Shown in pieces: positions 12,425 to 22,541 of a stretch of 64,000 nt of DNA. The stretch covers positions 15,047 to 79,046 of the IMG/VR virus record IMGVR_UViG_3300017716_001756. One strand, 5' to 3'. How positions within the stretch are numbered: position 1 is the stretch's first letter; the number at the start of each line of letters is the position of its first letter. Below the pieces are notes generated by a model. That model was given only the letters and a program-made list of their open reading frames with translations, had not been told where the DNA came from and did not search any database. The stretch is from a virus. Taxonomy: Duplodnaviria; Caudoviricetes. A program made the position numbers and the translations under genes.

Positions 12425-12438
12425 TCACGGCACCGTGA
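12425..12438. promoter_or_regulatory. Palindromic operator-like site, copy 1
   Basis: TCACGG-CA-CCGTGA, 16 nt upstream of the ATG at 12455. Confidence 0.75.
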
Positions 12439-12454
12439 AAAAAGGGACCACCCT

Positions 12455-13291
12455 ATGACCACCCTCGCAACCATCGCCGCGAACATCGGTTCGGCTATCG
12501 CCTCCGCCGATGCCGCAAACGATGCCGCATCCGTCGTCAAGTTTGACTCGCTCGTTTCGTTCGCCGCTGGCGTCGCCGTCCGGGTTCGGATGGAACACAT
12601 CAACACCGGTTCCAATCTGGAAACGGACGGCAAGGGCCGTTTCGTCGCCGTCGTGGACCTCTCCAAGGATCAGCGGACGGCACTAGTCGCCGCCTTGGGC
12701 AAGGGCGGCACCGTGAAGGACAAGGACGCGGCGAACATCGCCAGCCTTGGCCGCTCGCTCGCCCTCTTCGCCGTTCCGCTCATGATTGAGGACGGCAGCC
12801 TTCGCGAGGCCGTGTCCGGGGATCGGATGCGCGAAATCATCGAAGAGACTGTCCTGTATCTCACGCATGGCAAGGACACTTACAACGCCTTGGAACGCCT
12901 CCGTTCCAACAAGTGGCAAGCCTTGCCGTTCGTCATGGCCACGGACGGCGAGGACGGCGAGGACGGCGAGGACGGCGAGGGGGTGAACCTCTCCGATACG
13001 CTCGACACGGCACCGGCTGGCGAGGGCGAGGGCGAGGGCGAGGGCGAAGGGACCGCACCGGACCCGGAAGCCACCCTCGACGCTGAAGTCTCGAACGCGG
13101 TCCGCGCCCTGCAAGCCGCCTTGGATCGGGGGGAAGTCTCCCGGATCATGGCGCAAGGCGGCGGGGCTCTCGCTCTCGCTCTCGGCGCTGCTATCGCGGC
13201 GGAGGCGGAGACCCGCGAAGCGGTCCGCATCGCTGAAGAGGCGGAGACCTTGGAGGCCAAGGCGGCCAAGGTTCGCGCCAAGGCGGCCTAG
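12455..13291 (+). CDS. GC-rich Ala-rich/acidic early protein
   Basis: 278 aa from ATG 12455 (AAGGGA RBS); (DGE)3 and (GE)5 low-complexity linker; strongly GC-ending codons. Confidence 0.75.
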   Translation: MTTLATIAANIGSAIASADAANDAASVVKFDSLVSFAAGVAVRVRMEHINTGSNLETDGKGRFVAVVDLSKDQRTALVAALGKGGTVKDKDAANIASLGRSLALFAVPLMIEDGSLREAVSGDRMREIIEETVLYLTHGKDTYNALERLRSNKWQALPFVMATDGEDGEDGEDGEGVNLSDTLDTAPAGEGEGEGEGEGTAPDPEATLDAEVSNAVRALQAALDRGEVSRIMAQGGGALALALGAAIAAEAETREAVRIAEEAETLEAKAAKVRAKAA

Positions 13292-13301
13292 GGTCCAACC
13301 T

Positions 13302-13327
13302 TCCCGCCATCCGAAAGGGTGGCGGGA
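13302..13327 (+). terminator. GC-rich GAAA-tetraloop hairpin (terminator or processing site)
   Basis: TCCCGCCATCC-GAAA-GGGTGGCGGGA just after the stop codon; no U-tract. Confidence 0.5.
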
Positions 13328-13359
13328 CACTTGGACCCTAGACCACCCGGAACAAAACG

Positions 13360-13396
13360 GAACGGAATGAGAACAAACCGTGAACAAACCGTGAAC
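13360..13396. promoter_or_regulatory. Three overlapping LexA box-like sites
   Basis: GAAC-ggaatga-GAAC-aaaccgt-GAAC-aaaccgt-GAAC, all with N7 spacing. Confidence 0.65.
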
Positions 13397-13487
13397 ATTC
13401 GTGACATACCCGCTTTCTCGCGCTCGCGCCCAGAGGAAAAGCCTTTCCAAAGGTTAAGAAGCGGGCGCTAGAACATTCCGGGAGTTT

Positions 13488-13501
13488 TCACGGCACCGTG
13501 A
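13488..13501. promoter_or_regulatory. Palindromic operator-like site, copy 2
   Basis: TCACGG-CA-CCGTGA, intergenic. Confidence 0.75.
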
Positions 13502-13537
13502 AAGTTCCAAAAAATCTTGACCCTGAAAGGACTTGCC

Positions 13538-13711
13538 ATGTTCGTTCCCTTTATCTGCATCGTCGCAGGACTGTGCCTCGCTCTTTATGCAGCGGCATCC
13601 GCCGGAATGGCGTTCGACCGAAAGGCCCTTGTGCCACTGGCGGGGTGGTCTATCGTGTCTGTGGCATCGTGGGCAGGGGCGCTTGCTGCGGCATCGTCGG
13701 TGCTGGCATGA
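13538..13711 (+). CDS. Small two-TM membrane protein
   Basis: MFVPFICIVAGLCLALYAAAS...; AAGGA RBS. Confidence 0.6.
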   Translation: MFVPFICIVAGLCLALYAAASAGMAFDRKALVPLAGWSIVSVASWAGALAAASSVLA

Positions 13712-13863
13712 TTGGGGATAGCCGGGCCAGTCGCACGGAACAGCGCACCTTTCCGTCGCACGTCCAAGCCCAATCGTGGCTGGACACCCTCGCAGGGCAA
13801 CTGTGTTCCTACGCCCGGTGGCAGGACGCGCAGGGGTGTCATGTGGAGGCGCGTTACAAGTAA
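13708..13863 (+). CDS. Small hypothetical protein
   Basis: ATGA overlap with the upstream gene; 51 aa. Confidence 0.45.
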   Translation: MIGDSRASRTEQRTFPSHVQAQSWLDTLAGQLCSYARWQDAQGCHVEARYK

Positions 13864-13934
13864 CCTCCCCCTCGCGCAGGGGAGAACCGTCTTCTAATAG
13901 TAAGAAGCGCGAGCACCATTATTTCGGGACTTTT

Positions 13935-13948
13935 TCACGGCACCGTGA
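13935..13948. promoter_or_regulatory. Palindromic operator-like site, copy 3
   Basis: TCACGG-CA-CCGTGA upstream of the RBS of the gene at 13970. Confidence 0.75.
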
Positions 13949-13969
13949 TTTTCAAGAAAGGACGAGCCA

Positions 13970-20517: not shown

Positions 20518-20519
20518 TT

Positions 20520-20687
20520 TTGAAATACTCTGATCTTGGCAAAGTCTCGTGGCGCAATCATGAGCGCGACGATGAAGACTCCCGTAAGAATTGGCGGAAA
20601 TTCAACCGCCATGGCCAGCCCGAGGAATTTTCCCGCGAAGAATGGGAATCCAAAGGCAAAAAACCCAAGCGTAAGGACCACCGATAA
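20520..20687 (+). CDS. Small highly charged protein
   Basis: 55 aa, TTG start, coupled to the next gene. Confidence 0.45.
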   Translation: MKYSDLGKVSWRNHERDDEDSRKNWRKFNRHGQPEEFSREEWESKGKKPKRKDHR

Positions 20688-20872
20688 TGTACGGTTCAGT
20701 AGGCTCTGATTTCCGAAACACCGATCCTGCGGCCTATCGCGCCTCTTCCAATGCCAATCAGGCAAGGTTCAAGCGCGACGACCGCCAACGCATTCTCAAA
20801 GCCATGCTGGATGAAGGCTTTGACCCGAACGTGAGTCTGGGCGAGACTTACAAAACCATAATCCGAGGATAA
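20687..20872 (+). CDS. Small hypothetical protein
   Basis: 61-aa ORF, TAATG overlap. Confidence 0.55.
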   Translation: MYGSVGSDFRNTDPAAYRASSNANQARFKRDDRQRILKAMLDEGFDPNVSLGETYKTIIRG

Positions 20873-20873
20873 A

Positions 20874-21029
20874 ATGAAAGCCCCGAATTCCGAAGCTGCT
20901 GACCGCGCCCGCATCACGAAGCAATACGCGGATATGCAGAAGACCCAAGCCCTTCTTCAAATTCCGATTCTGGAATCGATGGGTTACGTCGTCACCCTTC
21001 CCGACACTCTGGTCCCTGAATTGGGGTAA
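20874..21029 (+). CDS. Small hypothetical protein
   Basis: Manual translation MKAPNSEAADRARITKQ...; GAGGA RBS. Confidence 0.5.
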   Translation: MKAPNSEAADRARITKQYADMQKTQALLQIPILESMGYVVTLPDTLVPELG

Positions 21030-21034
21030 CTGAT

Positions 21035-21286
21035 ATGGTCATCAAGAAAATCAATGCGGCTCGCGCCGCTGCGTATCTTGCGTGTAAGCGCAATCGGCAC
21101 CATATCGTCCGACACGGACTTCTGGGAACCGCTCTGATCGTCTTCTTTCTTGATGCCGCTATGTCGGCATTCCCCATGGTGTCGGCATTCGCCCACACCT
21201 TTCTGAAACCGTTCGCCGTTCCTATTGCGGCATTCGCTGGTCACCTCGGGTTTCTCATGAAACCCGAGCCCAAAGCTCCCGCGTAA
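21035..21286 (+). CDS. Small membrane protein
   Basis: 83 aa with two hydrophobic stretches; hairpin and T-run follow. Confidence 0.55.
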   Translation: MVIKKINAARAAAYLACKRNRHHIVRHGLLGTALIVFFLDAAMSAFPMVSAFAHTFLKPFAVPIAAFAGHLGFLMKPEPKAPA

Positions 21287-21363
21287 AAAGCGGGTATTGC
21301 GGGGCCGGGAGGGGGCTTGACTCCACCTTCTTTCGGCCCCGCCTCCTTTTCTGGATATCTGAA

Positions 21364-21720
21364 ATGATCCTCGATCCTGTCGAAATTCTTCTGTACGGCA
21401 CTGCCGCTTTTTTCCTGACTACGATTATCTACCCCGCTTGGGTGATGACTCGTAAGGAGAAAAAGCGTGAAGAAGCCAAACCCGCAGCCGCGATCTTCTA
21501 CGGAATTCTGGAACAAGACGTAGGAAGTGGAGCGCGAACGTGGCTCACACCCTTCGATATTCCGACTATCGATAAAGCTCTGCATGAAGCCGCTGTTTGT
21601 TTGAGGGATCGCCGGATCGCTTCTACCACTGTCTTCGTCAGCAAAAATGGGGTCATGACCCCCTTGGTTACGATTACTCGCGCCGACTCCAATATTCTGG
21701 AACCGAAAACTCATGCTTAA
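21364..21720 (+). CDS. Hypothetical protein with N-terminal TM
   Basis: 118-aa ORF. Confidence 0.55.
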   Translation: MILDPVEILLYGTAAFFLTTIIYPAWVMTRKEKKREEAKPAAAIFYGILEQDVGSGARTWLTPFDIPTIDKALHEAAVCLRDRRIASTTVFVSKNGVMTPLVTITRADSNILEPKTHA

Positions 21721-22015
21721 CGTCTTTCAAGCCGTCAAGAAGTACGAAATGGGTGCCCCTTGGGCAGATGCCGCCAGTGAATTGGCGCTGCACCCCGAGA
21801 GTGGCCTCTTCATGCACCAAGGCGAATACGCCGTGGTCGAACTTCCGCTCAATTTCGCCTTCCCTCCTGTTCACCTTACGTTCCTGACCGCTGAAGGCGT
21901 CATGGTCAACGCTGGTGAAGACTTCGCCTGTTTTGAAACTGAAGATGACCGCCACTGCCTGTGGCGTCTGGATGCGCTGAAGAAGCCTCCTGTCATCCCA
22001 CCGCTGGTGGCTTGA
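21713..22015 (+). CDS. Hypothetical protein
   Basis: 100-aa ORF overlapping the upstream stop. Confidence 0.55.
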   Translation: MLNVFQAVKKYEMGAPWADAASELALHPESGLFMHQGEYAVVELPLNFAFPPVHLTFLTAEGVMVNAGEDFACFETEDDRHCLWRLDALKKPPVIPPLVA

Positions 22016-22151
22016 AAAAAGTTTCCCCTATGCCCTTGATCGACGGTCAAGGCTCCCCATCTTCGTGTCTCACGAAGACCACCGACTGTCATTCTGGCAG
22101 TCTTAACCTGCTGGTCAAAATCCAGCTTCTACAAGAGAAAGTGACTAAACC

Positions 22152-22499
22152 ATGTGTGGATCGACTCAAACCACTGCTTCGCGTACCGCCTCCGCTTCGG
22201 TGAAGGCTTCCGCCCGCCGCACTTTCGCGGTCGGTGACACCGCCCGTACTCCGGGTGGCTCGACCGGCACCATCATCGCTCAAGATGGTGGTATGTCGTG
22301 GATCAAGACGGCGAGCGGGAAGAATTTCTTCCGCAACACCGCTGATCTGCTGGATCGCTCGCTGATCGCTGGCGATGCGGTCATCACCCAGAAGGGCAAC
22401 AAGGCCACGGTTCGCGCCGTTGTCGATGGTACCGCTTGGGTTCAGACCCGTGGCAACCGTCAGGTCGCTCGTTCGGTTGACAGCCTGACCCGCGCCTAA
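22152..22499 (+). CDS. Tandem KOW/SH3-like protein
   Basis: FAVGDTARTPGGSTGTIIAQDGGMSWIKT and LIAGDAVITQKGNKATVRAVVDGTAWVQT. Confidence 0.7.
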   Translation: MCGSTQTTASRTASASVKASARRTFAVGDTARTPGGSTGTIIAQDGGMSWIKTASGKNFFRNTADLLDRSLIAGDAVITQKGNKATVRAVVDGTAWVQTRGNRQVARSVDSLTRA

Positions 22500-22507
22500 G
22501 CATCTTG

Positions 22508-22541
22508 ATCACGGTGCCGTGAATTTTCACGGCACCGTGAT
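22508..22541. promoter_or_regulatory. Head-to-head pair of palindromic sites (copies 9 and 10)
   Basis: ATCACGGTGCCGTGAA-TT-TTCACGGCACCGTGAT, itself a 16-bp perfect inverted repeat. Confidence 0.8.

Follow-up and report, generated by a model that had tools for sequence, protein, structure and literature searches.

In the plasmid RK2, KorB acts on a global regulon through OB, a 13-16 bp palindrome repeated about 12 times, and in the Streptomyces phage phiC31 conserved 17-bp inverted repeats (CIR) reportedly occupy many intergenic regions among the early genes and are bound by the c repressor. Here we analyse a set of TCACGG-NN-CCGTGA palindromes in a 64,000-nucleotide stretch of a tailed phage (Duplodnaviria; Caudoviricetes), hereafter the window, which comprises bases 15047-79046 of the 79,046-bp virus record IMGVR_UViG_3300017716_001756; the record is estimated to be 96% complete, and positions are window coordinates throughout unless marked as genome bases. 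phiC31 is unlike the present case in being a temperate actinophage with a known binder. The palindrome set is real, statistically overwhelming and under selection, and it is an instance of a known, mechanistically poorly understood kind of phage element. We consider it reasonably probable that the palindromes are double-stranded DNA (dsDNA) sites for a phage-encoded, homodimeric, sequence-specific protein, which would unite about 10 kb of presumed immediate-early genes in one regulon.

The closest published analogue is the repeat of the Cluster O mycobacteriophages, a 17-bp TGTTCGG-NNN-CCGAACA with arms invariant in 34 copies, a variable centre and both orientations (PMC4351075). Its copies are intergenic, 5'-proximal and intragenic without a link to the direction of transcription; the repeat is absent from the host and from other phages, and a dimeric DNA-binding protein was inferred, with the function left open (PMC4351075). 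The palindromes of the window likewise have invariant inverted arms around a variable centre without orientation bias. They differ in number and distribution, since the Cluster O repeat exceeds 30 copies genome-wide with one sequence per cluster, whereas here 12 copies lie in the first 10 kb and each related lineage has a palindrome of its own; phages and hosts are unrelated.

At the Cluster A stoperators (L5 gp71 type), bound repressor stops the elongating polymerase, and the site specificity diversifies and defines immunity groups (PMC9283540, PMC6550527). These sites are 13-bp, asymmetric, read by a monomer, oriented with transcription and distributed genome-wide in temperate phages (PMC9283540, PMC6550527). 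The window resembles them in that a single short site recurs many times, far above chance, in narrow gaps between genes. In contrast to the L5-type asymmetry, its sites are palindromic and orientation-free; they are restricted to the early zone, and the phage has no recognised integrase.

An initial reading of the window from its letters and open reading frames (ORFs), here called the sequence-only reading, had also drawn a comparison with parS. The outer TTTCAC/GTGAAA indeed equal the parS arms, though in these six outer bases only; the arms do not abut in a 16-bp site but are separated by GG-NN-CC, which adds 6 central bp. Relatives use unrelated palindromes, and the likeness is therefore most likely coincidence. 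The analogy thus fails, as does the ParB-like protein proposed along with it: no match to ParB_N (PF02195) was obtained at E<=0.1 in the whole genome, while control genomes matched.

A set of perfect palindromes confined to 10 kb

TCACGG-NN-CCGTGA occurs in ten exact copies in the window and not once in 100 dinucleotide-preserving shuffles. Together with two variants that have a 4-nt spacer, at 16563 and 18283, these make 12 palindrome copies, all confined to 12.4-22.6 kb, or about 10 kb of a 79-kb genome. The ten starts given by the sequence-only reading proved exact, a pattern search returned its two variants, and the shuffles agree with its estimate that the set is far above chance. The confinement that it had noted for the window extends to the whole 79,046-bp record, the rest of which, including the remaining 15 kb, contains no further copy. 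Copies with 1-2 mismatches are absent as well, though about three are expected by chance; all 12 copies therefore have perfect arms. The set and the associated repeat array are as follows.

12425..12438: copy 1 (centre CA), intergenic; the ATG of the first early gene, at 12455, lies 16 nt on
13350..13405: five direct repeats of 11 bp, in an array that precedes copy 2 by about 90 nt
13488..13501: copy 2 (CA), intergenic; ATG at 13539, 37 nt on; upstream flank like that of copy 3
13935..13948: copy 3 (CA), after a terminator-like hairpin; ATG at 13970, 21 nt on
14787..14800: copy 4 (TG), abuts the ATG at 14803; central GGTG at Shine-Dalgarno distance
15204..15217: copy 5 (TA), intragenic in ORF 15111-15335, where it reads S-R-Y-R-D
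16236..16249: copy 6 (TG), 15 nt past the strong hairpin 16188-16221; ATG at 16251, 1 nt on; GGTG at Shine-Dalgarno distance as in copy 4
16563..16578: 4-nt-spacer variant (CTTA); ATG at 16585, 6 nt on
17175..17188: copy 7 (TG), intragenic, towards the 3' end of gene 16585-17367
18283..18298: 4-nt-spacer variant (TCAG), within the 551-aa gene 17382-19037
20504..20517: copy 8 (AG), intergenic, straight after a G+C-rich hairpin that follows the peptidase gene
22509..22540: tandem pair (TG, then CA) with starts at 22509 and 22527, 18 bp apart, which closes the motif zone

The central dinucleotides of the ten 2-nt-spacer copies are CA (four), TG (four), TA (one) and AG (one), so that both orientations reported earlier are equally represented. 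A/T tracts flank the copies, again as first noted; when the sites are oriented on the CA centre, TTT is mostly on the 5' side, and the full consensus is close to TTTCACGG-NN-CCGTGAAA. The flanks of the copies share no extended homology. A 2-nt spacer at 18283 would, by coordinate arithmetic, place TGA in the reading frame, and avoidance of this stop may be the reason for the 4-nt spacer there. The tandem pair has TTGACA about 30 nt upstream and a long hairpin downstream. The direct repeats at 13350-13405 read GAACAAAACGG, AACGGAATGAG, AACAAACCGTG (twice) and AACATTCGTGA; two of the five contain the perfect right half-site CCGTGAAC and the other three degenerate half-sites.

A codon-usage model trained on long ORFs places essentially all genes from 8.4 to 58 kb on the + strand. 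A strong terminator-like hairpin (11915-11938) closes the stretch that contains the primase-helicase (9142-11607) and a small ORF. The palindrome zone consists of small ORFs with almost no database matches, and beyond it come about 12 kb more of small ORFs without the motif and then, from about 34-36 kb, the replication module. Nine of the 12 sites are intergenic and three intragenic (15204, 17175 and 18283), and six stand 1-37 nt 5' of start codons (12455, 13539, 13970, 14803, 16251 and 16585), which bears out the earlier description of copies abutting start codons or lying within genes. Several follow directly upon terminator-like hairpins, for example in the order hairpin 16188-16221, site 16236, ATG 16251.

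Related lineages carry palindromes of their own

The phage collection contains no nucleotide relative of this phage. Its primase shows 41-49% identity with the primases of Achromobacter phages JWF and 2-1, Xylophilus phage Lumi and Caulobacter phage Seuss, and its gene order is common with JWF across the structural, primase and replication modules; judged by these comparisons, it is a distant relative of JWF, Lumi and Seuss. In these three phages long direct terminal repeats separate the primase from an extended series of small genes (see also PMC9959647), which is transcribed away from the genome end. By its position the palindrome zone would correspond to the first-transcribed block, and our label 'early' likewise derives from the place next to the terminal repeats in the relatives. 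When the relatives were scanned without bias for repeated inverted repeats, each of the three yielded a different palindrome.

JWF: GGTTCGT-N-ACGAACC (GGTTCGTnACGAACC), 12 copies, of which two are terminal-repeat duplicates
Lumi: TTACT-N5-AGTAA (best form TTACTAGnCTAGTAA), 20 copies
Seuss: TTTACCT-N-AGGTAAA (TTTACCTnAGGTAAA), seven copies

All of these copies lie within the equivalent block, mostly just 5' of ribosome-binding sites. In Seuss the right arm of the palindrome is the Shine-Dalgarno sequence itself and the left arm its complement. The open papers on the relatives TCUP2199 and Lumi mention no palindromes, promoters or operators; the words 'repeat' and 'motif' occur in them only for terminal repeats and in one reference title.

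Single-protein queries and megablast returned no near relatives; a primase alignment alone succeeded and gave 80 loci of uncultured relatives (L-numbers denote loci, G-numbers genomes). Thirty-two of these, which are most of the loci having several kb beyond the primase, carry their own 14-20 bp palindrome in 3-13 copies, on the downstream side of the primase in all but L051. Among the best populated are AAAAGTGCAATTGCACTTTT (13 copies), GGTCCCG-N4-CGGGACC (11 in the locus; 15 perfect copies plus single-mismatch variants in the whole genome) and AAAGTGCGACnGTCGCACTTT (nine); further lineages have GTGCAGnnCTGCAC, GGTTCAAnTTGAACC, AGTCCTAnCTAGGACT, TGTTCCAACGTTGGAACA, TGTTTGTACAAACA, AGTTTACCTAGGTAAACT or CGATGCAATTGCATCG. 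In all, more than 20 uncultured lineages reached by way of the primase have a palindrome of their own. The palindromes of some close relatives differ only in inner bases or in arm spacing. In five whole genomes of relatives the motif is confined to a zone of 12-17 kb. In the first 26 kb of Acinetobacter phage EAb13, which is more distantly related, no palindrome is repeated, and the trait is thus not universal.

Two arrangements in uncultured lineages are more elaborate. One lineage, represented by L088, L089 and L090 (13047-15255), has two palindrome families in series, TTGGGAAATTTCCCAA three times and then AAGTGACTnnGTCACTT six times, the second with partly 61-bp spacing. In L036 (13960-14050; G003) the early zone opens with three palindromes in 80 bp, one of which has abutting arms (GTGCGAC-GTCGCAC), and with extra partial half-sites, so that it resembles a compound operator before the first early gene.

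Outside the family, the same 14-mer (TCACGGTACCGTGA) occurs nine times across IMGVR_UViG_3300025934_000014 (G023, loci L333-L339), an unrelated 122-kb phage contig of 65% G+C, where it is spread genome-wide and stands mostly just before start codons; the contigs G024 and G025 have three copies each. An intersection of the proteomes with that of G023 detected no shared regulator. Among the matches listed, a motif scan of the genome collection gave one site per stretch in diverse taxa and no clue to the host.

Selection and placement of the sites

Because the phage of the window has no close relative, conservation was assessed in sister lineages that share one motif. Between such diverged relatives the flanks are 86% identical, and the syntenic site is fully retained in 45 of 57 comparisons, compared with 16.5% expected if the arms had drifted like the flanks. 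Selection acts on the sites, and the refuting outcome named by the sequence-only reading, a motif not conserved between relatives, did not arise in these sister lineages. Placement is equally non-random: 56% of 153 sites in 23 genomes have, no more than 45 nt downstream, an ATG followed by an open frame of 40 codons or more, whereas for random positions drawn from these zones the figure is 27% (p = 8e-13). Copy number and placement together support the dispersed, operator- or stoperator-like set among early genes that had been proposed.

Double-stranded DNA sites versus RNA hairpins

The central tetranucleotide of an inverted repeat is where a hairpin must have its loop. In six of about 14 even-length lineage motifs, self-complementarity extends through these four positions (chance 1/16 each; binomial p ~1e-4). 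Predicted hairpin energies span -15 to -0.3 kcal/mol across lineages, with next to no hairpin for Lumi, Seuss, L067 and L063, which indicates that a stable fold is not the conserved property; in the window the 2-nt form reaches -5 to -7 kcal/mol and the 4-nt-spacer form -13.8 kcal/mol. Near-copies in relatives carry single-arm, uncompensated changes, the same CGAGACC variant recurring three times in G005, and changes of the compensatory or G-U type are absent. Both centre orientations are found 5' of same-strand genes, here and in G005, and at 13350-13405 one arm alone is repeated directly at the helical period of 11 bp. In seven genomes conservation ends sharply at the palindrome ends, with no other informative position within 60 nt.

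These observations, together with the three intragenic copies and the lack of any Rfam family match, speak against hairpins in early transcripts, whether of RNA or single-stranded DNA, that would act as attenuators or terminators, as processing or stability signals, or as translational operators hiding the ribosome-binding site or held by a protein. We regard such a role as unlikely, even though it would suit the location of the sites in 5' untranslated or intercistronic spaces of same-strand genes, the spacer that varies (2 or 4 nt) between fixed arms, the good fold of the 4-nt version, the Shine-Dalgarno arm of Seuss and the GGTG of the copies at 14787 and 16236. In L086, L036 and L082 an A-tract, stem and T-tract do recall bidirectional terminators. 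The copies of the window, however, do not have the features of intrinsic terminators: the stem is weak in the 2-nt form, at least three T follow only 3 of the 12 copies, the usual flank pattern is TTT-site-AAA with the T-run 5' and the A-run 3' rather than a stem followed by a T-run, and a terminator scan made one weak overlapping call only, at 22500. From these sequence patterns we favour a dsDNA site for a two-fold symmetric protein over an RNA hairpin. The earlier preference for a dimeric dsDNA-binding protein is thereby strengthened through family-wide symmetry, hairpin energies and uncompensated arm variants.

Sites located between a terminator-like hairpin and the next start codon are where promoters are expected, and in places (16221-16236-16251; also in Seuss and Lumi) there is too little room for a separate sigma-70 promoter. 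As stand-alone, lineage-specific elements the palindromes would also recall T7-type promoters, which co-evolve with their polymerase. That they are phage-specific promoter or activator sites, at which a bound phage factor recruits RNA polymerase to each early unit, nevertheless strikes us as very unlikely. Perfect two-fold symmetry is directionless, the distance to the start codon varies from 1 to more than 40 nt with two copies 1-2 nt from it and hence no leader, and the copies inside genes do not fit. The scanned proteins included no recognisable phage RNA polymerase or sigma factor and the large ORFs no giant virion polymerase, and the presence of both centre orientations before + strand genes excludes a strand-specific hairpin promoter of the N4 type.

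A third possibility is that the palindromes serve DNA transactions, as recombination hot spots or cassette boundaries by which early genes would be shuffled, as nicking or nuclease sites, or as handles for stepwise DNA entry or for condensation of the DNA that enters first. All copies are perfect, as is the case for enzyme recognition sites; they are spaced at about 1 kb, also inside long genes, and their zone starts at the genome end that bears the terminal repeat in JWF, Lumi and Seuss. Indels have arisen by recombination between the analogous Cluster O repeats (PMC4351075). Among relatives, some homology breakpoints are located 0-70 nt from a site, but the proportion within 70 nt, about 8 of 40, is little above expectation because sites and mosaic joints both favour gene boundaries, and a role as recombination joints is not supported. 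Considering in addition that the flanks of the copies are not homologous, that the zone shows no recognisable dedicated recombinase or nickase and that the primase-helicase has no hypervariable DNA-binding part tracking the motif, we doubt strongly that the sites function in this way.

A candidate reader

Since the motif changes between close relatives, the reader of a dsDNA site should be phage-encoded and fast-evolving. The binder suggested by the sequence-only reading has the following position and layout.

34365..34907, + strand: candidate binder, a two-HTH protein of 180 aa with an N-terminal three-helix helix-turn-helix (HTH) and a C-terminal XRE/lambda-cI-like HTH

Its gene is located about 1.5 kb upstream of the helicase, in the same place as the homologues Seuss gp077, annotated as a Cro/C1-type regulator, and JWF gp066, and the family is present in most complete relatives. 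On its own the protein gives only a weak match (HTH_26, E 0.026). Family members match HTH_28/HTH_23 towards the N-terminus and HTH_3/HTH_31 towards the C-terminus, the latter in 11-12 of 14 cases; the family profile matches DdrO, the controller (C) proteins C.BclI and C.AhdI and the 434 repressor. An AlphaFold model (pLDDT 84.5) has the lambda cI N-terminal domain and C proteins as its best folds (Foldseek E ~4e-3, prob 1.0). The family thus combines the HTH_3/HTH_31-type domain with the cI-like five-helix fold that mark an XRE/lambda-cI-type HTH. DdrO, the C proteins, 434 and lambda cI bind palindromes as dimers. Family profiles and model together confirm that the two-HTH protein is real, and it evolves faster than its neighbours, being the most diverged of the conserved middle genes (58% versus 79-87% for neighbours; G002 versus G003). 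When scaled to that of the primase, its identity comes to 0.85-1.05 for the three pairs that share a motif and 0.62-0.83 for pairs of comparable distance whose motifs differ, which is suggestive of covariation with the motif. Among the proteins considered, it is most likely the reader of the palindromes.

Other candidates were rejected. The gp006-like protein encoded before the primase (8407-8823) is helical without a DNA-binding match, universal in 80 of 80 loci and conserved (46-66%, G003 versus relatives) across lineages with different motifs. The primase-helicase lacks a hypervariable segment that tracks the motif. Three complete relatives lack a conserved 153-aa protein (50389-50850), whose HTH match is weak and falls outside the region that is conserved. 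About 30 small proteins from the zone and from G003 were compared with Pfam and PHROG, and none showed a DNA-binding domain. In an Arc-like ribbon-helix-helix protein the DNA-contact residues (A/S, T/S, R) are the same across very different motifs. The gene for this protein, at genome bases 13760-13987 (+) and so just outside the window (L142:1474-1701), lies antisense within the structural module; its synteny is kept in JWF (gp017), G001-G003, G005, Seuss and others, and among Burkholderiales-type relatives the sequence upstream of it is conserved as well. By these comparisons it is probably a separate regulator with a conserved operator of its own.

The products of the first early genes were likewise set aside, being Ala-rich, acidic and without detectable homology to one another and hence, by composition, not DNA binders. 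The first gene behind the genome end (here 12455-13291; JWF gp002/gp069, Lumi_003, Seuss gp003) encodes 220-280 aa, rich in Ala, with an acidic low-complexity middle (here GEDGEDGEDGEG... and GEGEGEGEGEG). These proteins are syntenic without detectable mutual homology, and the local palindrome precedes each gene. In location and make-up they are reminiscent of anti-restriction proteins that enter the cell first.

Of the early and middle genes, which are anonymous otherwise, three gave weak or clear family matches, at 15293-15673 (GNAT acetyltransferase, E 1.5e-4), 19027-20214 (M28/M42-like peptidase, PHROG 4e-71) and 31169-32233 (RNA ligase, PHROG 4e-36). An Rfam tRNA model matches 127 nt at 20289-20415 (38.7 bits, E 2.4e-5), where ARAGORN calls no tRNA; the palindrome at 20504 is about 90 nt downstream.

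Discussion

Starting from the sites, their confinement, the selection on them, their symmetry at the DNA level and the same arrangement with other sequences in relatives, we infer that a protein binds, which protein it is and that the regulation is negative. Each arm (TTTCACGG) would be read by one subunit of the dimer, with the centre not contacted, and the presumed immediate-early, host-takeover genes behind the genome end would form a single regulon whose symmetric operators each stand alone. Single sites occupy the short gaps before start codons and recur about every 1 kb even inside long genes, which makes a block to RNA polymerase the most likely effect: occupied sites would act at initiation or as a roadblock, and the whole early block would be switched off together. 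The trigger would be the build-up of a middle-gene product, or else the shut-off would serve as immunity towards superinfecting phages of related kinds. As the most likely reader we regard the two-HTH protein (34365-34907), whose being encoded 12 kb downstream among later genes fits an early shut-off.

Several observations weigh against this account. In seven genomes no -35/-10 element stands in fixed register with the sites, and scans for sigma-70-like promoters gave matches at chance level, so that a classical overlap of promoter and operator finds no support. The spacer measures 4 nt instead of 2 nt in two of the 12 copies; a rigid dimer should have difficulty with such a change, and the sequence-only reading had not weighed this mild counter-argument. 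Known operator sets usually include weaker variants, and the perfection of all 12 copies is unusual for operators. The palindrome of Seuss and two copies of the window overlap the Shine-Dalgarno sequence, an arrangement that would be compatible with RNA-level control too. As regards the reader, the covariation has no statistical power, given only three same-motif pairs and motif classes that lie on one clade. The recognition helices are nearly the same in G001, G002, G003 and JWF despite their differing motifs. In addition, G009, G010 and G016, three relatives with fairly complete sequences, yielded no member of the family, and of these G016 clearly has a repeated palindrome.

Site sequences switch wholesale between close relatives, and four relatives derive from isolate genome assemblies in which they are classed as proviruses; an immunity-like role is thus possible. 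Such switching is known from the immunity regions of temperate phages. It is also the pattern of the Cluster A stoperators (PMC6550527). We put forward only tentatively, as an idea with a modest chance of being right, that the palindromes and a fast-evolving reader constitute an immunity-like code in a large family of terminal-repeat siphophages treated as lytic.

Palindromes that are dispersed and invariant have been described in a few phage groups; what this family adds is that more than 20 natural versions with different sequences occupy the same genomic position. Three relatives are available in culture, one of them on Caulobacter crescentus, a host amenable to genetics. With so many natural versions and with cultured members, the reader, the effect of occupancy and the change of specificity between regulator and site become directly testable. 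If the sites gate immediate-early genes, they would also point out the genes for host takeover within 10 kb that otherwise lack annotation. If they form an immunity code, a resident or earlier phage would silence the immediate-early block of an incoming relative that shares its palindrome; escape would drive the switching of site sequences between close relatives, among which one lineage has two families in series, and the provirus-classed relatives would be carrier-state or episomal forms held by the circuit.

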